Assembly (NCBI GenBank): GCA_963817955.1
Contig: CAWFQK010000004.1
Span: forward strand, 1,632,001-1,696,000
Length of the DNA stretch: 64,000 bases
DNA from: an uncultured Gemmatimonadaceae bacterium
Lineage (GTDB): Bacteria; Gemmatimonadota; Gemmatimonadetes; Gemmatimonadales; Gemmatimonadaceae
Reading direction: 5' to 3'
The notes below the pieces were generated by a model. It had not been told where the DNA came from and made no database searches. It worked only from the letters and a program-made list of their open reading frames with translations. A program made the position numbers and the translations under genes. Of this stretch, positions 38,313 through 50,563 are shown in pieces; positions within the stretch are counted from its first letter, which is position 1; each line of letters opens with the position of its first letter.

Positions 38313-38687
38313 ATGAGCGACATCTACTTCCCGCCGCGCGAGCTCGCCGTGATGAGCGTTCTCTGGCGACTCGGCTCCGCCACCGTTGCGGACGTGCGCG
38401 ACGCACTCGAGGAAGACCTCGCGTATACCTCCGTTCTCTCGGCATTGCAGACGCTCGAAGAGAAGGATTATGTGCGCCACGAGGCCGAAGGCCGCGCGTA
38501 TCGCTACTTCCCCACCGTGGAAGCCGAGCGTGCAGGCGGCAGCGCGCTCGCGAGGATCCGCGACGCCATCTTCCACGGCTCGGCGGAGCGCATGTTCGCG
38601 CAGATGGTCTCGGACAAGAAGCTCGGCCGCAAGGAGCTGGAGCAGATGCGCCGGCTGCTCGCCGAACGCCTCGGAGAGAGAAAGTGA
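38313..38687 (+). CDS. BlaI/MecI/CopY-family repressor
   Basis: 'RELAVMSVLW..ATVADV..LAYTSVLSALQTLEEKDYVRH..GRAYRY..FHGS'. Confidence 0.93.
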   Translation: MSDIYFPPRELAVMSVLWRLGSATVADVRDALEEDLAYTSVLSALQTLEEKDYVRHEAEGRAYRYFPTVEAERAGGSALARIRDAIFHGSAERMFAQMVSDKKLGRKELEQMRRLLAERLGERK

Positions 38688-39708
38688 TCGGGCTCGTGGT
38701 GTACGGTTTGGCCGTCGCGCTGTTGATGATTGCCGGCGCGCGCGCCGCCGAGTGGCTCGTGCGCGGCGCGGGCCTGCCGGTTCGATGGGTGTGGGTCGGC
38801 GCGATGGTCGCCACACTCGCGTTGTCGTTCGCGGCCGTGAGCCGCGCCGTCCGCTCGACTGCCGCTCTGCCAACGTATGTCGTTGCCGATGCTTCCGCAC
38901 GGCAGGTGACCGAGAGTCTGACGCAGCCGACGCTGGGAAGCCGCCTCGCGGCGACCGTTCTCGCGGCGCAGCACTCGTTGAATGATGCACTGGCGCGCGC
39001 GACGGCCATCGCACGGCGCGACCTGTCGCCGACAATCGTCAGCGCAGCGATCGCACTCTGGGTGCTCTCCGGCGTCATCCTGCTGATGACCTTCGCCATG
39101 GTACAGCGCCGCATGCGCCGCGTGCGGGGCGCATGGCCGGTCGCCGATATCGCCGGTGCGCGGGTGCGTATCTCGCCGACGATCGGACCGCTGGTCGCCG
39201 GCGTGGTTCGTCCGGAGATTGTGGTCCCCCGTTGGCTGCTCGGCCGTGCAGCGAACGAGCAGCGGATGGCCATCACGCACGAGGCTGAGCATGTGCGCGC
39301 GCAATCGCCCCGGCAGACATCGGCCGCCTCGAGGTCAACAAGAGCGCGGCGTCTGGTCACGACACGATTCGGATGTGGACGAAACGCGCTGCTGCGGCCG
39401 CTCAGATCGTCCCCGAGGGCGAGCGGCGCGTCGCTTACACCATCGACGGCAAGGCAGGCAGCGACACCGTGTGGCTGAACACGCCACGAATGCCCTATCT
39501 CATAAAGGGGATACCGGCGATCGAGAACGCGCCCGTGATGTTCCTCGATGGCGTGCGCGTCAAGCCGACGGTCCTCCAATCGATCGATCGCACCCAGATC
39601 GAGAGCATCGACGTCGTCAAAGGCCCGTCCGCCGTGGAGCTCTATGGTCCGGATGCAGCGGCAGGCGCGATCGTCATTCGTACGAAGAAGGGCGCGAACA
39701 GGGATTGA
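38684..39708 (+). pseudogene. BlaR1-like M56 peptidase fused to TonB-plug-like domains, with internal deletion and frameshift
   Basis: 'GPLVAGVVRPEIVVP..HEAEHVRA' breaks at about 39300. Another frame resumes with 'IAPADIGRLEVNK' and 'IESIDVVKGPSAVELYG..GAIVIRTKKG'. Confidence 0.8.
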
Positions 39709-40388: not shown

Positions 40389-41507
40389 ATGCAGCATACG
40401 TCGATATTCGCGGTCGCTTGCCTGCTGCTCGCAGCGGCGCCGGCTCGAGCCCAACTCAACGCGACTGTGTCACGAGACTCGGCGCGACTCACCGGGACCG
40501 TGCGAGACGCGACCGGCGCGCCGCTCGCCGACGTTGAAGTGTTTATCGCCGGCGCAGCGCAGACCGTGCGCACGACGGGCACGGGAGGCTTCGCGCTCGC
40601 CGCCACCCCGGGCAATCTCGACGTGTGGTTCCGGCAAATCGGAAGCCAAACGGTTCGGTACCTGTGGGTAGCCCGGCTGGGGGAAGAAACCCACATCGTC
40701 GTGACGCTTCAGGCGCTGCCCCACACGCTCGATCCGGTTGTGGTGCGTGAGCGTGAGGACAAGCGCTTTCGAGGTACGGCGACGGTCCGAGGCGTGGTCG
40801 TAGACTCGGGCGGAGTGCCGATCGAAGATGCCGAGGTGCAGGTGATCGGCGCACACGCTGACGGCGCGACACGCGCGAACGGCGGCTTCATCTTCGACCG
40901 TCTCCCGTCGGGTTCGTTGCTGCTCCGTGTTCGGAAGTTCGGCTATGCTCCCAACGCACTCTCACTGCAGCTGGACGCCGGGGACGATCGCGAACTCGTG
41001 ATTCGACTGCGACGTTTGCCGACCACACTCGACCCGGTAGTGGTCCAGGCCCAGAGCGGCTACAGCGCCGCGGAGGCAGCGTGGGACGAGTTTGAGCGCC
41101 GCCGCCGCTGGCGCTCAGCCGGCGATATGGTGCTGGGGCCTGCCGACCTACAGCGGTACGGTTCGCTCCCCCTGGACATCGCAACGAAGTACATCTTGAA
41201 TGGGGTGGAGGAACTGCCGAAGATGCGTCAGCAAGGCCGTGTGACGAGCTTCGGCCACGTCCACTCTCGTGGCGCGCCGCCACCCGCGGCGCTCAACGAT
41301 GTGTGCATTCTCGAAAATGGCATCCACGCGCGATACCAACCGATCTCCGTGTACAGCGCGGACGACATCGAGATGCTCGAGGTGTACCCAACGAACACGG
41401 AACTGTCAGGCACCGTCGCGGCACGAATGGACATGGTCCCGCGTTGCCGCTCGGACGGGTTGGCCCACCCAACCTACTATGTCGTTTGGCTCAAGGGCGC
41501 ACGGTAA
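40389..41507 (+). CDS. Secreted protein with two carboxypeptidase-regulatory-like domains and a plug-like tail
   Basis: Signal ending ARA|Q; 'GTVRDATGAPLADVEV' and 'GVVVDSGGVPIEDAEV'; 'DIEMLEVY'. Confidence 0.8.
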   Translation: MQHTSIFAVACLLLAAAPARAQLNATVSRDSARLTGTVRDATGAPLADVEVFIAGAAQTVRTTGTGGFALAATPGNLDVWFRQIGSQTVRYLWVARLGEETHIVVTLQALPHTLDPVVVREREDKRFRGTATVRGVVVDSGGVPIEDAEVQVIGAHADGATRANGGFIFDRLPSGSLLLRVRKFGYAPNALSLQLDAGDDRELVIRLRRLPTTLDPVVVQAQSGYSAAEAAWDEFERRRRWRSAGDMVLGPADLQRYGSLPLDIATKYILNGVEELPKMRQQGRVTSFGHVHSRGAPPPAALNDVCILENGIHARYQPISVYSADDIEMLEVYPTNTELSGTVAARMDMVPRCRSDGLAHPTYYVVWLKGAR

Positions 41508-41714
41508 GAGAGGCGTGGAACGCGAATCAGCAAGGCGACCAGCCCTCACGACCCCGCCAGTTACGGGGCGCACAGTTGGCGACCGCGGGATGGGCCACCA
41601 GGCCAACAAGCAGATCCCGCAGCGACCCCACGGTCCGCGCCTTGAACGGCTGGCGCCGTGTGCTGGTGAAGCGCGTGCCGTAGAATGTGCGTAAGAATAC
41701 TGCGTACCGAACGG

Positions 41715-44172
41715 TCAGCGCACCGTGCCGACGCACGTGGCGGCCGTGTTCAATCCCACCAGTTTCGACAGCACCAGCAGGGCGTCCACCGCGGTCACGT
41801 CACCGTCACAGTTCGCGTCCCCGTTCGGATAACGAATCGCGCCGGCCGGCAGCGGCAATCCGACGACCGCCGAGAGGATCGCCTGCGCATCGAGCGCCGA
41901 CAGCGTGCTCGAGTTGGTGATGTTGCCCCGCAGCGCCGCCGTGCTGGTGCCCAGTGAGAAGACGCCCCGTCCGTACGTCCCTGCGATCAGGCGCCCGCGC
42001 GCGCCGTCGTAGACGAGATCGGTGATCGGCACGTTGGGCAGCGATGCGGCGAGCGGGGTCCAGGAGGTCGTCCCGAGCGGCAGTGCGAACACACCGACAT
42101 CGGTCGCCACGTCGATCTCGCGACTGCCCCGTTGCATCACGATGCTGCTCACGGGTGCATTCGGGAGGTTGTACGAGATGTCGGTCCACGAGCCGCCGGT
42201 ATTGACGGTCTTGAACACGTGTCCGGAGCCGTATCCGCTCACCGTGAGCCACGCCGTCTTGGGGTCGAGGGGATCGACCACGATCCGTGTGATGGCGCGG
42301 TACGGCAGTCCGCTGGTGATCGTGGTCCACGTGACGCCGAGATTCGTGGTGATGGCCACCGTGCCGTCGCCTGCTCCCGTGTAGATGGTGTTCGTATCGG
42401 CCGGCGAGATGGCGACGGTGGCGATGCCGCCCCCGCCCGAGGTGAGGTCGGGGCTGATCGCCGTCCAGGCGTCGCCGCGATTCGCGGAGCGGTACAGCCG
42501 GTACGTACCGTAATACAGCACGTTAGTGTTCAGCGGATCCATCAGGGTCGGCAGGATCCATTCGGACCGGTCGCCCGTGTTGATGCCACTATTCTTGAAT
42601 GACCAATAGCTGCTCCCCGGATCGCGCCGACCGACGCCGTGCGCGGCCGAACCCGAGGCGAACGTGAGGTACGCCGTGGTGCCAGCGCGGTCGTACAATG
42701 AGTATCCGCCATCGCCGCCCTGCACGGACGTCCATGCGGCCGCACCCGTCCACTCGGCCGTGCCGTTGTCCTGCGCGCCGCCGAGAATGCTCGACGGGTT
42801 CACCGGGTTCACTCCGATGCCGGCGTAGAACTGCGTGATGTTGAGATTGGTGTTGAGGTGCGTCCAGGTGACGCCGCCATCGACGGAGCGGTAGACGCCG
42901 CCGTCGTTGCCCGAATAGATGGTGGTCGGCGTTTGCGGATCGAAGGCGATCGCGTGGTGATCGACGTGGACAGTGCTCCCGCCCACGTCGGTGAACGTCG
43001 CGCCGGAGTTCGTGGACTTGTAGAACGAGAAACCGCCGAAGTAGATCGTCGTAGGTGTCGTGGGGTCCACGGCAAGGTACATGTCGTACCAGCATTGCGA
43101 GTTGCAACTCGCACCGGTCGCGGCGACGCTGTTCCACGTGGTGCCATTGTCCGGGCTCGTCCACACCCCGAGCAGTTTAGCGGTGTTGACGTTCTCAACG
43201 GTGGCGTACAGCACGACGGGCGCCACCGCCGTCACGGCGAGGCTGATGCGCCCGACGTTGCTGGTGGGGAATCCGGCGAGGTGGCTCCACGTGAGGCCGT
43301 TGTCAACGGACTTGAAACCCCGTTGCCAGCGCTGTTCGAGAGTAGATGCTTCCAACCGCCGCGTACAGCTCCCCCGCGTTCGGCGTGGCGATGAGGTCGG
43401 TGATGGTGCCACTGAGCACCCGCGTCCACGTCGTGCCGCTGTCGGGCGACCGGTACACGCCCGTCGCGCTGGCCGCGAAGACGATCGTTGTGCTCGTCGA
43501 GCCGGCCGTCGCCCGGTCGACCAGCATCTTGCTGATGGTGGCCGAGTAACTGCTGGCCACGAAGATGCTGCCGCCGCGCTGGCTCCAGGTCGTGCCACCA
43601 TCCGTGGACACTAGGATGCCACACCCCTGGTAGCCCCCGAGGTTGAAGTTCTCCTCACCGGTGCCGGCGTACACGATCTGCGGATTCACGGGATCGAGCG
43701 CCACGCTTCCCATGGCCAACCCGCATTCATTGTCCGTGAGCGGCGTCCACGACGTGCCGCCGTTCGTCGTCTTCCACACGCCGCCCGACGCCGCACCGAT
43801 GTAAATGATCTGGGAGTTCGTCGGGTGAACCGCGATGCTGTTGATCCGGCCGGCGTAGTTCTGGCTCGCACTCACCGTGATCGGCGCCGGTCCAAGCGCG
43901 CTCCACGATTGCGACGACACGAACAACGAGAGCGATGCTGCGCTGCGCCCGCTGCGCGTCTGCGGCCACTGCACCTGCATTTGTGTCAGGGCTGCCTGAA
44001 GCGCGCCGTCGGGCACGCGATCGAGCGGGAAGGCGCGTTGCCCGTAGAAGGCATCGTAGCGCGCGCGCTGGTTGTCCTGCTGTGCGCCCACGCGTGCGGG
44101 GATCGGGGCGAGCGCCAGCGCGCTGGCGAGCGTGCCGAGCCACATGCGGCGCACACCGTGAGCTGCGGTCAT
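41715..44172 (-). CDS. Secreted BNR/Asp-box beta-propeller protein (GH74/VPS10-like) with C-terminal dockerin; frameshifted at about 43314-43342
   Basis: Many S/T-x-D/N-x-G-x-T/S-W repeats, 'GRINSIAVHP', 'HVDHHAI', 'GGAQDNG', 'GTYGRG'. Two 1-nt losses interrupt IYSSNSAGNGVFKS. Dockerin repeats GNITNSSTLSALDAQAIL and GDANCDGDVTAVDALLVL. Confidence 0.85.
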
Positions 44173-45056
44173 CGTGGCGACTCCAGAGTTAGCGCGATGC
44201 AATTGCTCGTGCCCGCGATAGTGCGGACGCAGATGTCGAATTTGCCGGCGCCGATGCGTTGTGGCGGCACTTCTCCCTTGGCGGGGAATGCGTCAGGCAA
44301 CAGGAAGCGCAACGTCTTGCCGTCGTCCGACCGCAGCTCGGCCATCGCCACGCCGCCGAACAACACCACGTTGCCCTCCGGTCGGAAGCCCGAGCCGTGG
44401 ATGATGACCGGCACGAGACCGCCCGGAACGATCGTGGCGCGCGCCGGGTCCAGCCGGTCGACGCGGGGCACCCCCGGCGCATCGGGGGCGGCCGGAGTCA
44501 CTGGCCGGTGCACCGTATCGCGCCGTTCACCGATCCCCACGACGTCGGTGTGTTCAACGAGCGTGGCACCGCTCGTCGAGTTCAACTCCAGGAGTCGCAG
44601 CGTCATCGTCCCCGGCGCGGCGCTCGCCGCCCTGCCGTGGACGGGCGCGAAGTCGAGCTGCAGCAACGACCCCGATGTGAATCCACCCGACGCGGCGCCC
44701 GCGATGTCGGCGCGACCGGCGCGGGTGAGGTTCGCGACTTCAGCTCCCATGGGCGCGGGAACGAAGTGCACGGCGAGAACGAACGTCGAGTCGTATTCGA
44801 TGGCGACGTGAAAGCTGCCGAGACGAACCCCGGGAGCGGGGTGCAGGCAGAGGCGCACCGTGCGCACCGTATCACGCACCGCTGCGGGCGCGAGATCCAG
44901 CGAGAGGCGTGACGCCGTGGACGCGGGATGAGCGGCCGCACAAGCGGGAGTGCCCTGCGCCATCGCGCCAGAGGCCGCCATGGCGGCGAGCATCACGCCG
45001 GCCCACCATGGACACACCTGCCGGACCGACGACGCCCGCTCGGCATCGGACGTCAC
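44169..45056 (-). CDS. Secreted cohesin-like + IPT/TIG domain protein
   Basis: Signal ending AMA|Q; 'LGSFHVAIEYDSTFV..ANLTRAGRADIAGA..LLQLDF'; 'PRVDRLDP..VIIHGSGF..VVLFGG'. Confidence 0.72.
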   Translation of the reverse strand: MTSDAERASSVRQVCPWWAGVMLAAMAASGAMAQGTPACAAAHPASTASRLSLDLAPAAVRDTVRTVRLCLHPAPGVRLGSFHVAIEYDSTFVLAVHFVPAPMGAEVANLTRAGRADIAGAASGGFTSGSLLQLDFAPVHGRAASAAPGTMTLRLLELNSTSGATLVEHTDVVGIGERRDTVHRPVTPAAPDAPGVPRVDRLDPARATIVPGGLVPVIIHGSGFRPEGNVVLFGGVAMAELRSDDGKTLRFLLPDAFPAKGEVPPQRIGAGKFDICVRTIAGTSNCIALTLESPR

Positions 45057-45568
45057 CGCAAGCTACGGTCGAGGCGCAAGGCGGCGAGCGGCCGGAGCTT
45101 CGCGATGCGGCTCGTAAACCGGACCGTATTCAGCTCGCCGATCGTCAGCGCGAGTGTCGGCTTGGTGATCGCGACGCGCGCACGAAAGTGCAGAACGAAC
45201 AGCCGGCTGTCGGGAATTCCAGTCGCACTGGCGCCGGCAATCACCACCACGCTGTCGAGCGCATTCACCGCTCGCATGACGCCAGGCACGGCATCGTCCG
45301 ACACGAACTCGAGTTGGGCCGCGTCGTATCGCAGCCGCGCGACGAAGCTCGCTACCTGCTCGCCGCCGCCGGCCGCGTCGACATTGCCGCTCACGACCAG
45401 GCTGGCACCCGCCGGCAGCGCGCTGTCCGACACGACCACGTAACTCAGTCGCTCCGGTGTCGCGATCGCCGCGGACGCCTTCGGAGCGGTCGGTACGATG
45501 TCATCCCTGCACGCCGCACAGACCAGCGTCACGAGGAGCACTCGCCCGATCGTCGACATATGTGTCAT
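45053..45568 (-). CDS. Lipoprotein with a single cohesin-like domain
   Basis: GGAGGGAGG RBS, lipobox 'VCAAC', 'VASFVARLRYDAAQLEFVS..VNALDSVVVIAGA..LFVLHFRAR'. Confidence 0.75.
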   Translation of the reverse strand: MTHMSTIGRVLLVTLVCAACRDDIVPTAPKASAAIATPERLSYVVVSDSALPAGASLVVSGNVDAAGGGEQVASFVARLRYDAAQLEFVSDDAVPGVMRAVNALDSVVVIAGASATGIPDSRLFVLHFRARVAITKPTLALTIGELNTVRFTSRIAKLRPLAALRLDRSLR

Positions 45569-45591
45569 GCCCTCCCTCCGTTCGCGTCTCA

Positions 45592-48438
45592 TCATCGGAT
45601 CACCACGGGATGCGAGATGGCCAGTGTCGTACCCAACACGCTGGTGAACGTCGTCGCCGCCGTGAGCTCCGTGGCGAGCAGCGTCAGGAAACCGGCTCGT
45701 CCCGTCGTCGAGGCGGCACGGAAGGTAATCCGGCGCAACTGGACGGTGCCCGCGAAGCCCGACGACGATGCGGCGGTGATCAAGAGCGAGCCGTTCGCCG
45801 CGTTCGCCGTACCGACCGTCGCACCGACGCTGCTCGTACCCTCGGCATCGCTCACGTAGATGAGCTGCAGAGGATCCCACGTCACCTCGACCGTTGCCGC
45901 GCCGAGACGCGTGGCGCTGCGCATGTCGGCGATCACCGTGAGCGTGAACGTCGTGTCGTGCTTGATGTCGAATCGCGACAGGTCGGTGCGCAGGACCGGA
46001 CCTCCGGCGGTCGCGATCGCGAAGAGGACCGAGTCCTTGGCCGCGACGTTGGCGGTAGATGTGGCGACGAGCATCGTCTGCCCGCGCGCGATCGGCGTCA
46101 CGACGCCCGCACTGCTCACCGATGCCGCGGAGGCCTCCCGGCTCACGTACGTGAGCGCCGGCGACGACATCGACCGGCCGTATTGGTTCACGGCCGTGAA
46201 GAGTCCGGCTGTCGCATAGGCGGTGTCGCTCACCACCACGTCGCCGAGGGTCCACGTCACGGACGTGGGCGTGCCGACCGCATTCGTGACGTTCGCGCTG
46301 CCCGTGATGCTGTTGGCGTCGAGCGCCGTCACCGCGTACGTCACGCCGATACTCGTTCCCGTGGCGTACGAAGTGCTCGCGACACCCGACGCCGACGTCT
46401 GCGACGTCGCGGGTGTGAACACGCCGCCGCCAGCGGCCGACCCTACGCTCCACGTGATGGTGCGACCGAGCAACGACACAAAGTTACCGTTGGCGTCGAC
46501 GAGCTGCGCGGTCACTGAGACGCTCGCTCCTGCCACCGGTGTGCTCGTCGTGGTCCCTACGACATACCGCGCGGGCGCTCCCGGGACTGTCGTGAGCGAG
46601 AGGCTTCCGCTCACCGACGCGTTGTCGGTCGCCGTAATCTGGTAGACCCCGATGGCGGTTCCCGTCGTCAACGACACCGTCGCGAGCCCGTTCGCGTCCG
46701 TCGTGGACTGCGCGGACGCGAACGTGCCACCCGATCCGGTCTTCGTCCATGTCACGACGCGCCCAGCGAGCCGCACCGCACCGCCAGACACGTTCGCCAG
46801 CTGTGCACTGATTGTCGCGGCCGTCCCCGCCACCGGCTGGACGGTGTTCGACGTGACGACGTACCGGGTCGCGGTGTTCGGGACGAACGTGATCGCCGTG
46901 CCAGGCAGCGCGACGCCGTTGAGCGTCGCGTTCACGGTCGCCGACGACGGTGCGTTCGGCGCGGTGAGCGTCGCCGTGTAGGTGCCATCGTGGTTGTCGG
47001 TCGTCGTCGACACTGTGCTAGTGGTCGCCGAGATCACGACGATCCCGCCGGATACATGCACGACATTGGTGTTGGCATCGCGCAGCTGCACGGTGATCAT
47101 CACCGTAGAGAGACCGTCGGCCGCGAGCACGGTAACACTCGGCTGCACGGTCGAGCGCGCGGCCGACGCCGGGCCGGCGACTGACGTGAACGTGGCGCTC
47201 GTCCCGGTGAGACCGCCGCCGTCGGTGGCGGTGACGGTGTACGGTGACACGAGTACGGCGGTGGTGTACGACACCGTCGCGACGCCCGTGGCTCCGGTCG
47301 TCGACGTTGGCGTCGCGAACGTGCCCGCCGCGCCCGTCGCGCTCCATGTGACGACAGTACCGGCAGTCGACACCGCGTTCCCGTTCGCGTCGGCCAGTTG
47401 GGCGGTGATGGTCACCGCTGCTCCCGCCACGGGCGACGTCGTGCTCGGCGTCACCGTGTACTTCGCGGCCGGCCCCGCCACCGACGTGATCGCGGCGCTC
47501 GTTCCCGTAAGCGTGCTTGCGTCCCGGGCCGTGACCGTGCCGCTGCCGACCGTCTTAGGCGTGGTGTATTGCACGGACACTTGACCGCTGGCATCGGTGG
47601 TCGACGTCGGCGTCGCGAACGAACCACCGGCGCCTGTCGTGCTCCACGTGACGACGCGGCCCGCAGTCGCAACGTTGTTGCCGTTTGCATCGACCACTTG
47701 CGCGGTGACGGTCACGGCGGCACCGGCGACCGGAGCGGTGCTGCTGAGCGACACCGTGTAGTTCGCCGGCGCGCCCGCCGTGACCGCGAACGGCGCCGAC
47801 GTGACCGTCGCCAGTCCCGTCGAGGAAAAGCTCAGTGTACGGCTGCCGGTGGTGCCGGCGATGCCGAGCGTCGTGAACGTCGCGACGCCGCCCGACGCGG
47901 AAACGGTGGTCGATCCGCTGAGCGTGCCACCTCCCGACGCGATGTCTGCGGTGACCGCGGTCGCGGCGCTGGTGAGATTACCACCAGCGTCACGAACTTC
48001 GATCGCCGGCTGCACACCGAACGACGCTCCGGCCGCGGCACCGGACGGTTGCGTGTTGATGAATAGGGTAGCCGGCGTGCCCTCGACGACCGTGATTGCG
48101 GCGCTGGCCGAGGAGACGCCCGACACCGACGCCGTGATGTTGGTCGAGCCGATCAATGCCGCGGTGACGAGACCGGATGTATTGACGGATGCGACCGTGG
48201 GTACCGAGGAGACCCACGTGAAGCTCTGTCCCGAAACGGGCGTGCCCGCCCCGTTGAACGCCGTCGCCGAGAGCTGCGACGTGGCGCCTCCCGCGAGCTG
48301 GACGGGACCCACCGGTGCGACCTCCACGCGCCGCACAGTGTTGTCGGGGGGAGTAGGTGCCAACGGCTCGCCGCTGCAACTCAGCACCACGGCACCGAAA
48401 ACCGCGACGGTGAGTGCACGGAGGTTCGCCGTCAGCAT
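45592..48438 (-). CDS. Large Ig-repeat (Big_1/Big_2, invasin-like) lipoprotein with C-terminal cohesin-like domain
   Basis: Lipobox 'VLSC'; repeated 'PVAGAAVTxTAQLxDANGN..VTW..STTDAxG'; C-terminal 'LGAATVEVTWDPLQLIYVS..ANGSLLITAA..RITFRA'. Confidence 0.82.
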   Translation of the reverse strand: MLTANLRALTVAVFGAVVLSCSGEPLAPTPPDNTVRRVEVAPVGPVQLAGGATSQLSATAFNGAGTPVSGQSFTWVSSVPTVASVNTSGLVTAALIGSTNITASVSGVSSASAAITVVEGTPATLFINTQPSGAAAGASFGVQPAIEVRDAGGNLTSAATAVTADIASGGGTLSGSTTVSASGGVATFTTLGIAGTTGSRTLSFSSTGLATVTSAPFAVTAGAPANYTVSLSSTAPVAGAAVTVTAQVVDANGNNVATAGRVVTWSTTGAGGSFATPTSTTDASGQVSVQYTTPKTVGSGTVTARDASTLTGTSAAITSVAGPAAKYTVTPSTTSPVAGAAVTITAQLADANGNAVSTAGTVVTWSATGAAGTFATPTSTTGATGVATVSYTTAVLVSPYTVTATDGGGLTGTSATFTSVAGPASAARSTVQPSVTVLAADGLSTVMITVQLRDANTNVVHVSGGIVVISATTSTVSTTTDNHDGTYTATLTAPNAPSSATVNATLNGVALPGTAITFVPNTATRYVVTSNTVQPVAGTAATISAQLANVSGGAVRLAGRVVTWTKTGSGGTFASAQSTTDANGLATVSLTTGTAIGVYQITATDNASVSGSLSLTTVPGAPARYVVGTTTSTPVAGASVSVTAQLVDANGNFVSLLGRTITWSVGSAAGGGVFTPATSQTSASGVASTSYATGTSIGVTYAVTALDANSITGSANVTNAVGTPTSVTWTLGDVVVSDTAYATAGLFTAVNQYGRSMSSPALTYVSREASAASVSSAGVVTPIARGQTMLVATSTANVAAKDSVLFAIATAGGPVLRTDLSRFDIKHDTTFTLTVIADMRSATRLGAATVEVTWDPLQLIYVSDAEGTSSVGATVGTANAANGSLLITAASSSGFAGTVQLRRITFRAASTTGRAGFLTLLATELTAATTFTSVLGTTLAISHPVVIR

Positions 48439-48781
48439 CCGACGACGTCCTTCGCCCGTCAACGGCCAACCGCCGTCATAGGCCGGGAGATCTCACGAAC
48501 AACGGCGAGCCCGGCTCGACCGAATGACGGCATTCGACAATTGTGCACTGCGGGGACTCCAAGAGAGGGAGGTACTGCGCGCCCCCGGACTGCTCGAGTT
48601 TGCGGTTGTCTTGGCGAGCGGTGACGAGCCTCATCATGCAATCACCCAGAACACGCCAACAGCCCCCGAGTGCCAGACCATTTAGCACAGAATTAGCATA
48701 AACAGTACGCCCAGCCTGAGGTCCCGTCAATAACGAATTTTCCTCGATTCGGCCTTGCGACTGTGCGAGACGCCTTGCGTA

Positions 48782-48881
48782 GACGCTCGATGCTCGGCGC
48801 GCGGGGACCCAGCTCGCGGCAAGGGTGGCGAGGCCCAGCAGCGGTCCAATCGCGCAGTAGGTGACCGGGTCCGTTGGAGAG
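48782..48881 (-). repeat. 100-bp copy of the 3' end of the ADOP gene (35591-35690)
   Basis: 89/100 identical by manual alignment, same orientation; encodes SPTDPVTYCAIxxLLGLATLAASWVPARRASSV. Confidence 0.9.
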
Positions 48882-48990
48882 CGTAGCACTACCGAGGGGT
48901 GGAGCCAGAGAACTCCAACTATGAAAGTTTGGTGTCCAGTGCCTGCGTGACATCACGTTGATGGCGGCCTCGGGAGTCGTGACGCTGGCC

Positions 48991-49665
48991 CTACCATACG
49001 AACGGCACCAGCCGATAACGAACCTTCCGCCGGTATTCCTTGTACCCGGCCAGCTCTGCCGACAAGAATCTCTCTTCGTCGAAGATGCGGGCGATCAGGA
49101 CGAACAGCAGGCCGAATGATACTGGGAGCGCCGCCCAGGACCCCAGGGCTGGTGGTGTGGAGAGAATCAATAGACCGCCTCCCGCGTACATGGGGTGACG
49201 AATGATGGCATACGGCCCATGCTCGATCACCCTCTGGTCGCGTGCCACCTCGATGGTACCACTCGTAAACCGATTGGCACGGAAGACTGCAAAGACGATA
49301 ACGAAACCGAGCACCACGAGCGCGTTGCAGAAGATCACGACAACGCTGGGGACATGCGTCCACCCGAATCGGACGTCGAGTCCCGACACGACGAATATGC
49401 CGATGAACAGAATACTGGCGGCGGATTGGATGACCTGTTGGCTCCGGCGAATCTCCGCCATTGGCCCGGCATACACACGGCGCGCCAGCAATTCTCGATC
49501 ATTCCGGATCAGCCAGCCCGTGATGACCACCGTGCACGAGCCGAAGACTCCGAGATACACCCACGCCTGCCAGTAGCCAACAGACCCTGCGGACACGAAG
49601 AGCGCGACAGCAAGGACAAGGATGAGAAACAACAGACCCAAGAATGCTCGTGTGATCAATCCCAT
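48991..49665 (-). CDS. Isoprenylcysteine carboxyl methyltransferase (ICMT/PEMT) family membrane protein
   Basis: 'QRVIEHGPYAIIRHPMYAG', 'RIFDEERFL..GYKEYRRKVRYRLVPFVW'. Confidence 0.92.
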   Translation of the reverse strand: MGLITRAFLGLLFLILVLAVALFVSAGSVGYWQAWVYLGVFGSCTVVITGWLIRNDRELLARRVYAGPMAEIRRSQQVIQSAASILFIGIFVVSGLDVRFGWTHVPSVVVIFCNALVVLGFVIVFAVFRANRFTSGTIEVARDQRVIEHGPYAIIRHPMYAGGGLLILSTPPALGSWAALPVSFGLLFVLIARIFDEERFLSAELAGYKEYRRKVRYRLVPFVW

Positions 49666-49704: not shown

Positions 49705-50100
49705 TTACCGCCGTTTGGGCTGTTTGCGAGAACGAGCGACGTCTGGCTCGCGTGACCGCAGGGCCGCCTTCGCGATAGGTTTCGCCCACTCCGGGATGGA
49801 GTCGAGCGGCGCAACGTGCTCGACGTTGCCGCGCGTGGTGCGGAGCAGCAAGGTAGGCAGGGGCCGCAGCCCCGCGAGTGGAGGCGCCTCGCGCGTGTTG
49901 TCGAATACTTCGAGCGACGTGAGCAGCGGCAGGAGTTCGACGAGGTGCTGGCGGCTGCGGTCGTAACGCTCGCGGATCTTTGTCTCGGGGATATCATATC
50001 CGCCGGCGGCCTCCACGGCCTGTGCCAGCACGCTGCTCTTGCCGGCGCCGTTCACGCCGGCGATGACATACAACCGCGCGCGTCGGTGAGAAGGTGTCAT
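49705..50100 (-). pseudogene. Zeta-toxin-like P-loop ATPase with in-frame internal deletion
   Basis: 'IAGVNGAGKSS' is joined after only about 11 residues to 'GGYDIPETKIRERY..VFDNT'; the central core expected in this family is missing. Confidence 0.72.
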
Positions 50101-50137
50101 CGCTCGCACGCCGAACGGTCGCGTGCTGCGGCGCCCC

Positions 50138-50563
50138 TCATCCGCCGCGCGAACGCGATCGCCTTGCCGCAACGAGCGCCGCGCGCCCCATGTCCTCGGG
50201 GGAAGTCGCGAAGCCGCGCGCGATGCCAGCCGTGGTCTCAGGGCGCTGCATCTCGCGCAACAGCGCGTCGAACTCAGCGCTGAGCGTGTCGAGCACGCGC
50301 GTGTCCCCTCGCGCCAGGGCCCGATAGCGGTCGACCGAGATCAACACGGCGCGTGGCACGTTGTGGCGGGTAATGACCACGACGTCATCTCCGGCCGCGC
50401 GGTCGAGCACTCGACCGAACTCGTTTTGCGCGTCGGTCGCTGAAATCTCGACTTCGGCGGCATCGGCGACCGGCCGATGGTTCACCGTAGCCGGCTCGGC
50501 CGCTTCGATTCGCGCGACAACTCGCTTTGCCCTCTTCATCGGCACCCGGATCCGTTTAGCCAT
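50138..50563 (-). CDS. Phd/YefM-family antitoxin
   Basis: 'ISATDAQNEFGRVLDRA..VVITRHNVPRAVLIS'; inverted repeat TTTAGC-N7-GCTAAA (50555-50573) over the start codon. Confidence 0.88.
   Translation of the reverse strand: MAKRIRVPMKRAKRVVARIEAAEPATVNHRPVADAAEVEISATDAQNEFGRVLDRAAGDDVVVITRHNVPRAVLISVDRYRALARGDTRVLDTLSAEFDALLREMQRPETTAGIARGFATSPEDMGRAALVAARRSRSRGG

Follow-up and report, generated by a model that had tools for sequence, protein, structure and literature searches.

A predicted cohesin-dockerin anchor-and-cargo cassette outside the cellulosome in a genome of the Gemmatimonadaceae

Among natural protein plugs and sockets, the pairing of cohesin with dockerin is the best known, and it is widely used in synthetic biology. 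To our knowledge, almost everything understood about its function comes from the cellulosomes of Gram-positive anaerobes. The envelope proteins OlpA and OlpC of Clostridium thermocellum, for instance, are anchored to the Gram-positive wall by SLH modules and serve many cellulosomal enzymes. Peer et al. are said to have dealt, in 2009, with cohesin and dockerin modules that do not belong to cellulosomes. Here, we examined a stretch of 64,000 nucleotides (the window; contig C4:1632001-1696000, accession CAWFQK010000004.1) from the genome of an uncultured Gemmatimonadaceae bacterium (GCA_963817955.1; 4.53 Mb in nine contigs), which contains an operon of four genes, G1 to G4. Three of these genes encode proteins with a cohesin-like domain, and the fourth encodes a propeller with a dockerin-like tail. 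We regard the locus, with fair confidence, as a self-contained, non-cellulosomal cohesin-dockerin anchor-plus-cargo cassette in this diderm bacterium, probably a tether dedicated to a single cargo protein.

Away from cellulose degradation, ANME archaea and syntrophic sulfate-reducing bacteria have cohesin/dockerin proteins that have been proposed to be adhesins (PMC10553843, excerpt), and non-cellulosomal dockerins are mentioned in Omnitrophota (PMC10066038, excerpt). A literature search for cohesin or dockerin in Gemmatimonadota gave nothing on topic, as judged by title and start of abstract, and among the matches listed for cohesin-dockerin together with lipoproteins or the outer membrane, most were by title engineering studies or reviews.

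Cohesin-type and dockerin-type modules of the operon

On the minus strand, the four genes follow one another head to tail, in the order G1, G2, G3, G4. G1 (45592-48438, from an ATG start; its entry in the list of open reading frames (ORFs) begins at a TTG at 48462) is separated by 23 nt from G2 (45053-45568, 171 aa), which shares a GTGA overlap with G3 (44169-45056, 295 aa); G3 in turn shares an ATGA overlap with G4, which starts at 44172. This tight packing had been pointed out in a preliminary description of the locus, made from the sequence, and all of it was found again in the ORF layout. The lipoboxes and signal peptides of the operon proteins were read by eye.

G1 is a predicted lipoprotein of ~950 aa (lipobox ...VVLSC), in which a stalk of ~790 residues of immunoglobulin (Ig)-like repeats, roughly eight domains (Pfam Invasin_D3, 3e-26; Big_1, 1.5e-20; Big_2, 3e-5), is followed by a C-terminal cohesin-like domain of ~135 residues (45595-45999, minus strand). 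This architecture recurs in the loci L008, L009 and L030 of relatives, and a G1-like relative (P0040) combines five Big_1 repeats with a Pfam Cohesin domain of 35.6 bits. G2 is likewise a predicted lipoprotein and consists of a signal peptide, a short linker and a single cohesin-like domain (45056-45454, minus strand), with little else. Its 25 homologues are 169-180 aa long and share an invariant Cys20; wherever the source gives a name, G2-type proteins are labelled "hypothetical protein", and for none of them is a Pfam domain precomputed. Both the long Ig-stalk lipoprotein and the small one-domain lipoprotein had been recognized before, and both stand. G3 is predicted to be secreted; its cohesin-like domain lies at the N-terminus (44517-44912, minus strand), and it has orthologues in L008, L009, L030, L031 and L032. 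The IPT/TIG domain that had also been assigned to G3 is less clear than its cohesin-like domain, as the TIG-like segment (about 44268-44468, minus strand) matched with E 0.026, below the Pfam cut-off; a TIG domain in a G3-related representative (P0032) matched with E 5.7e-4. Homologues that carry a name come from Gemmatimonadaceae or Gemmatimonadales metagenome bins.

The three cohesin-like domains align pairwise at 26-29% identity, and the pattern [LV][GA][SA]xxxx[LIV]x[YW]DxxxL..N..[IT]A[GA][AS]..GF/GI..LxF[RA]A, which had been proposed for them, is visible in all three. With Pfam Cohesin (PF00963, cut-off 24.1 bits), the G1 domain scored 19 bits (E 0.004) and G2 scored 13 bits (E 0.12), both of these sub-threshold matches lying at the right place, and G3 gave no match. 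NCBIfam held no match for G1, G2, G3 or their paralogues on contig C2 (see below). A profile made from the three operon domains and their orthologues (A4, with the G1 domain as its first row) was then scored against 1.84 billion representatives. At E <= 1e-3 it matched 1218 proteins, of which 273 remained at E <= 1e-10. Among these matches are a 1707-aa protein with eight cohesins, a CBM3 and a dockerin (E 1.1e-17), a protein of 2059 aa with 14 cohesins, proteins of a single domain such as P0059 (A4 E 4.6e-20; Pfam 32.1 bits) and proteins of the G1 kind with a Big_1 stalk, in which the C-terminal domain exceeds the Pfam cut-off. When 40 matches taken from the best 150 of the 1218 were scanned, 22 of them carried Pfam Cohesin. 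PF00963 was also found at E <= 0.01 in 19 of the 52 members of the small-lipoprotein family, and when the profile of this family (A6) was compared with the PDB, all ten matches were cohesins (best E 0.0025). The G3-type and G2-type domain families were joined by hhalign with 99.8% probability (E 1.5e-27).

We also looked at the fold, for which the evidence is the model of G2, the domains of G1 and G3 resting on sequence evidence. A first model of G2 built from 26 close homologues was poor (pLDDT 55.2), and an AF2 model built from 52 diverse small relatives reached a pLDDT of 88.7. In Foldseek, cohesins were the best matches of this model (2jh2, E 1e-6, with a TM-score normalised to target length of 0.73-0.77), further matches being 2xdh and both type I and type II cohesins. 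In a wide structural search with VIA-align, which is independent of Foldseek, the top 19 rows were all cohesins, at Z 10.4-13.9 and a root-mean-square deviation of 2.3-3.0 Å over 117-127 residues, and pilin and adhesin beta-sandwiches ranked below them, at Z 9.2 or less. The cohesin jelly roll that the preliminary description expected is thus what G2 is predicted to adopt. By profile, and by fold as modelled for G2, the operon domains are of the cohesin type.

Multi-cohesin proteins are frequent among the relatives of these domains (P0030, P0034, P0041, P0042, P0075, P0083 and P0099), and they end in sorting tails of the type IX secretion system (T9SS), of the Por_Secre_tail, CHU_C or FlgD_ig type. 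Cohesin arrays on diderm surface proteins appear to be common outside Gemmatimonadota.

The plug of the system would be the end of the G4 product, a two-repeat dockerin-like tail of ~78 residues (41718-41951, minus strand). A phmmer search of the PDB with this tail found, at E 0.0018, a dockerin of Ruminococcus flavefaciens (5m2o_B), the two repeats of each being aligned. Pfam Dockerin_1 (PF00404) gave 18.2 bits against a cut-off of 22.9, so the dockerin is sub-threshold in this locus and clear in its relatives and in the C2 paralogue: PF00404 was found at E <= 0.01 in 14 of 16 orthologous tails (best 7e-12), the repeats are recognizable across all 16 (alignment A7), and in the ESM Atlas clusters of G4 relatives, mostly from Gemmatimonadota, 96% of the members carry Dockerin_1 and 100% carry Sortilin-Vps10. 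Judged by its sequence, the G4 tail is of the dockerin type. Its second calcium loop is canonical (GDANCDGD...D) and its first is degenerate (GNITNSST...D), this loop reading N-I-T-N-S-S in the operon's clade rather than D-x-D/N-x-D-G. Cysteines at two places, within the second calcium loop and close to the C-terminal end, occur in at least 90% of the 16 tails and may form a disulfide clasp. The clade with the degenerate first loop (this locus, L008, L009 and L030) is also the clade with the full four-gene layout; since these genomes are kin, no link can be read from this.

Linkage of the cohesin and dockerin genes among relatives

In L008 and L009, the four genes are found in the same order as here. 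To follow the linkage more widely, 150 other genomes of the family were surveyed. The G2-type profile matched 12 of the 150, and these 12 genomes gave 13 loci, in 12 of which a dockerin-tailed ORF of 845-1032 aa comes directly after the cohesin gene on the same strand; the 13th locus is cut by a contig end. The dockerin tail was found in 24 of the 150 genomes, including all 12 of the G2-positive ones. In the other 12, a broader cohesin profile matched 8 and found nothing in 4, and in 7 of the 8 no more than about 3 kb separates the match from the dockerin (one of the seven matches being weak, E 9.3e-4), and in the remaining genome the match is on another contig. Since the genomes are kin, these counts are not independent. 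Hence, the conservation of cohesin and dockerin genes as neighbours, which the preliminary description had named as a point to be checked, is seen in 12 of the 13 loci and in 7 of the 12 further dockerin-positive genomes. What is conserved at the least is the pair of small cohesin lipoprotein and dockerin propeller, and the G1 stalk and the G3 TIG protein are additions in the operon's clade and a few others.

The same genome holds a paralogous locus of three genes on contig C2 (C2:895798-901123, or L014:6796-12123; minus strand). It encodes a 775-aa Big_2 stalk lipoprotein, the cohesin-like C-terminus of which matches the G1 domain (BLASTP E 1e-12; hhalign E 7.6e-6), and a cohesin lipoprotein of 165 aa, which profile A4 matches at E 1.8e-9. 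Its third product is an intact propeller of 853 aa; the dockerin of this propeller is canonical, scores 44.5 bits, above the Pfam cut-off, and matches the tail profile of the G4 clade at E 9.3e-22. Pfam and tail-profile searches of the 4.53-Mb genome found no further convincing dockerin beyond the two loci; the count of other dockerin proteins, which the preliminary description had wanted to know, is therefore one, the C2 paralogue. Next to the C2 locus we noted, by eye, a transposase-like ORF just beyond it (L014:12275-13516) and an adjoining 609-aa ORF (L014:2916-4745, minus strand) with TPR-like repeats and a C-terminal GGDEF-like segment.

The propeller cargo and its interrupted frame

G4 encodes an Asp-box propeller of the Sortilin-Vps10 type with a predicted signal peptide. 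In this genome, it is present as two ORFs in different frames, an N-terminal fragment (43303-44172, minus strand) with the signal peptide and the first blades, ending in a premature stop, and a C-terminal fragment (41715-43325, minus strand) with the rest of the propeller and the dockerin tail. Pfam Sortilin-Vps10 (PF15902) matched the C-terminal fragment with 5.1e-14 (52.3 bits against a cut-off of 33) and the N-terminal fragment with 3.5e-6, and the Asp-box pattern occurs nine times. An RR pair in G4 and L007 had raised a Tat signal as a candidate; this was rejected, the pair being missing from L008, L009 and the C2 paralogue.

We then asked how close the propeller is to known enzymes. When an intact G4 orthologue was compared with the PDB, it matched GH74 xyloglucanases (E 1.2e-16 to 1.6e-6) and the bacterial protein 3b7f (E 1.6e-12). 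In the 'ARTDIGG' segment of 6p2m_A, GH74 has its first catalytic Asp, and this residue aligns, with high posterior, to an Ala in the L008 orthologue. Of 15 G4 orthologues, 14 align at this position and have A, S, Q, N or G there; L034 does not align, and Asp occurs in none of the 15. In a weak local alignment of 5.6 bits, a 'GD' of G4 falls on a 'GD' of 6mgl_A in the region of what we take to be the second catalytic Asp of GH74, which belongs to the C-terminal propeller. Among the residues conserved in at least 14 of 15 G4-like proteins are H-x-D-x-H, Q-D-N and D-G-G motifs and a pair of Cys. NCBIfam gave sub-threshold matches of the propellers to a 'F510_1955 family glycosylhydrolase' model (105 and 136 bits, cut-off 175). 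Because the orthologues lack an Asp at the first catalytic position, we did not file G4 under GH74. Asp-box propellers include glycosidases, non-enzymatic Vps10 receptors and the uncharacterised bacterial 3b7f family (PMC2716378, excerpt), so the fold class by itself does not settle what G4 does. The likeness to GH74 lies in the Asp-box blades only, and the word 'enzyme' that had been applied to the propeller goes too far; a binding module or a non-GH74 activity is more likely than a xyloglucanase.

The break in G4 consists of two single-base deletions 23 nt apart (43316-43339, minus strand; net -2), which the preliminary description had missed when it reported one secreted propeller with a two-repeat dockerin: the domains are all there and the single open frame is not. 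Relative to contig L007 (92.7% identical, and 96% around the break), bases are missing at 43339 and 43316, and the other gaps within 2782 aligned bases sum to an in-frame six bases. Related soil-metagenome contigs from three of the four runs examined (X1, X4 and X20) have the extra base at both sites, and those of the fourth run end at the break site. G4 reads through in L007, L008 (840 aa) and L009 (837 aa), and the C-terminal fragment shares 71% identity with the intact L008 orthologue. We also considered programmed frameshifting and rejected it, as it would require two separate deletions and the relatives have the bases. The break stems either from a recent inactivation or from an error in the assembly.

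If the former, the locus could be a decaying remnant, with the cargo gene as a true pseudogene and the anchors orphaned or serving the C2 cargo. We consider this a serious possibility, if somewhat short of an even chance. It would fit the two frame-breaking deletions within 23 nt, which lead to a stop after 289 codons, the intact frame or the extra bases in the relatives and runs named above, and the C2 paralogue, which would remain as an intact 853-aa ORF. However, no public sequencing run contains the sequence of the window itself (best share of words 0.24), in which the deletions could be checked, the 1.26 kb of G4 that is covered by L007 shows no further frame-breaking change, and the downstream 536 codons are open, as they would be after an assembly error or a very recent event. 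Elsewhere in the window, a BlaR1-type M56 peptidase ORF (38684-39478, plus strand) is overlapped in another frame by a 111-aa ORF (39373-39708) with a match to the TonB-receptor Plug domain, and the tail of the M56 ORF looks out-of-frame. This region (38684-39708) may be another frame-shifted gene, and if so, assembly indel errors in this genome would be favoured.

The genes flanking the operon are apparently unrelated to it; they encode a CarboxypepD_reg protein, a BlaI/BlaR1-like pair, a PEMT/ICMT-type methyltransferase, a Phd/YefM antitoxin and an AAA ATPase. The Phd/YefM-type antitoxin gene (50138-50563, minus strand) overlaps by 35 nt a 155-aa ORF (region 49705-50563) with a P-loop-like GAGKS motif and without a Pfam match, and the two are a possible toxin-antitoxin pair. 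A promoter and terminator pattern scan of 41300-49000 found no terminator and a single promoter-like site, which is on the plus strand and of no use here.

A tether at the membrane, its alternatives and known systems

In the model that we propose, the Sec-exported Asp-box propeller G4 would carry a C-terminal two-repeat calcium-loop dockerin, which would be captured by the cohesins on the lipid-anchored proteins encoded just upstream, the short G2 and the long Ig-stalk G1. The cargo could then be held on the membrane at two different distances, through G2 or through G1, and the non-lipidated G3, with its cohesin and TIG domains, would be a third possible socket. We infer the mutual binding of the cohesin and dockerin modules, the choice of partner and the side of the outer membrane. 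A complex prediction for the G2 domain with the dockerin tail, run without controls, scored 0.25 against a mark of 0.32 and is given no weight on binding in either direction. A place at the cell surface is an assumption, one towards which the reach of the ~790-residue stalk, roughly 30 nm, would lean.

A number of observations speak against the model. The operon's own cohesin and dockerin modules are all below the Pfam cut-offs, and in the PDB a small profile (A1) found no match and the best match of profile A4 was an unrelated transacylase (E 0.1), no cohesin scoring better than E 0.67. In its first calcium loop, the dockerin has N, T and S where the ligands D, N and D are usual, so that calcium binding there is doubtful. 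The G2-type profile matched none of three genomes of the same genus, in one of which the dockerin tail was found. The cargo gene is frame-shifted in this genome, and three sockets per one plug are left unexplained by a simple one-to-one tether. Finally, no route across the outer membrane was identified.

This last point bears on where the modules would meet. The same proteins could form a periplasmic complex, the propeller being held in the periplasm by lipoproteins that sit either on the inner membrane or on the outer membrane's inner leaflet. As read by eye, G3 and G4 carry Sec-type signals only and G1 and G2 are plain lipoproteins, which in diderms face the periplasm by default, and G4 lacks the T9SS tail that several of the profile-found cohesin proteins of other phyla carry. 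On the other hand, the G1 stalk, if extended to about 30 nm, would exceed a typical periplasm, and arrays of Big_1 and Invasin_D3 domains are typical of extracellular passengers, whereas the conserved Cys pairs are compatible with either compartment. We hold a periplasmic location to be possible and rather unlikely, and the word 'surface' in the preliminary description claimed more than this evidence gives.

It is also conceivable that the cohesin-fold domains are generic adhesin or glycan-binding sandwiches, and that the neighbouring genes share a substrate without any binding to the dockerin. This would fit the pilin and adhesin sandwiches that come next after the cohesins in the structural ranking, at a Z of about 9, and the presence of three sockets for one plug. 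Yet the ranking itself separates the two groups (Z 10.4-13.9 against 9.2 or less), the sequence profiles tie the operon domains to scaffoldin cohesins, and the neighbour nearly always has a dockerin specifically, all of which makes this explanation improbable.

A true cellulosome-like, multi-enzyme, polysaccharide-degrading complex would agree with the presence of cohesin and dockerin modules and with the matches of the propeller to GH74 structures (E 1e-16 to 1e-6), and it can be set aside as very improbable, given just two dockerin-bearing proteins in the genome, one per locus, a single cohesin per protein, the Ala at the first catalytic Asp of GH74 (no Asp in 15 orthologues), and the finding of no carbohydrate-binding module (CBM) or recognised carbohydrate-active enzyme (CAZyme) family in Pfam and NCBIfam scans of the locus proteins. 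For the same reasons, the 'cellulosome-like modular enzyme display' of the preliminary description does not hold. The preliminary description is thus partly supported: it was right about the modules and their linkage, against which none of the tests it had suggested and that were run gave a contrary result, and it overreached in 'cellulosome-like', 'enzyme' and 'surface'.

Beyond the tether at this locus, we would venture a broader and more speculative idea, namely that in several diderm phyla lipoprotein cohesins act quite generally as membrane hooks, to which receptor-like propellers without enzymatic function attach by their dockerin tails, and that the cargo here can be parked at either of two heights, that of a short anchor and that of a ~30 nm stalk, or released to a soluble cohesin-TIG adaptor. 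If this were true, the system would be a device for sorting and displaying envelope proteins, unrelated to polysaccharide breakdown. In any case, the cassette offers a conserved minimal pair in an aerobic soil lineage of diderms, in which the gene for a lipoprotein socket is followed by the gene for a plug-bearing cargo, and hence a clean and directly testable case of the role of these modules outside cellulosomes. In addition, a family of small Gemmatimonadales lipoproteins can now be given a modelled fold and a likely role.

The locus can be compared with several described systems. The clostridial cellulosome, with its CipA-type scaffoldin and enzymes with type I dockerins, has module families in common with the operon, whereas no multi-cohesin scaffoldin, CBM or set of dockerin enzymes was found here. 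As to the cargo, Asp-box blade repeats are shared by G4, the GH74 xyloglucanases, Vps10/sortilin and the protein YP_299179.1 (3b7f), and the first catalytic Asp of GH74 is absent in the G4 orthologues. The anchors resemble OlpA and OlpC of C. thermocellum (3ul4, Z 12.6, and 4dh2, Z 11.5, against the G2 model), in which one cohesin on an envelope anchor captures a dockerin protein without a scaffoldin, as it might here; in contrast to these, the anchor in the operon is a predicted lipid and there is one cargo per locus. Like the proteins of syntrophic sulfate-reducing bacteria and ANME archaea, the operon would be a case of cohesin and dockerin in diderms outside cellulose degradation; those proteins were found by domain annotation, and the excerpted text describes no operon of a lipoprotein anchor with a propeller cargo (PMC10553843). 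The best matches of the G2 model, finally, are the cohesins of Clostridium perfringens glycoside hydrolases and toxins (2jh2, 2vo8, 2w1n and 2o4e) and 2xdh of Archaeoglobus fulgidus (Z 13.4-13.9; Foldseek E 1e-6 to 1.5e-5), which are likewise single modules that join proteins outside any cellulosome. However, C. perfringens is a monoderm and A. fulgidus an archaeon, whereas in this diderm the sockets are placed on predicted lipoproteins, the cargo is an Asp-box propeller, and the genes for socket and plug form a conserved operon.

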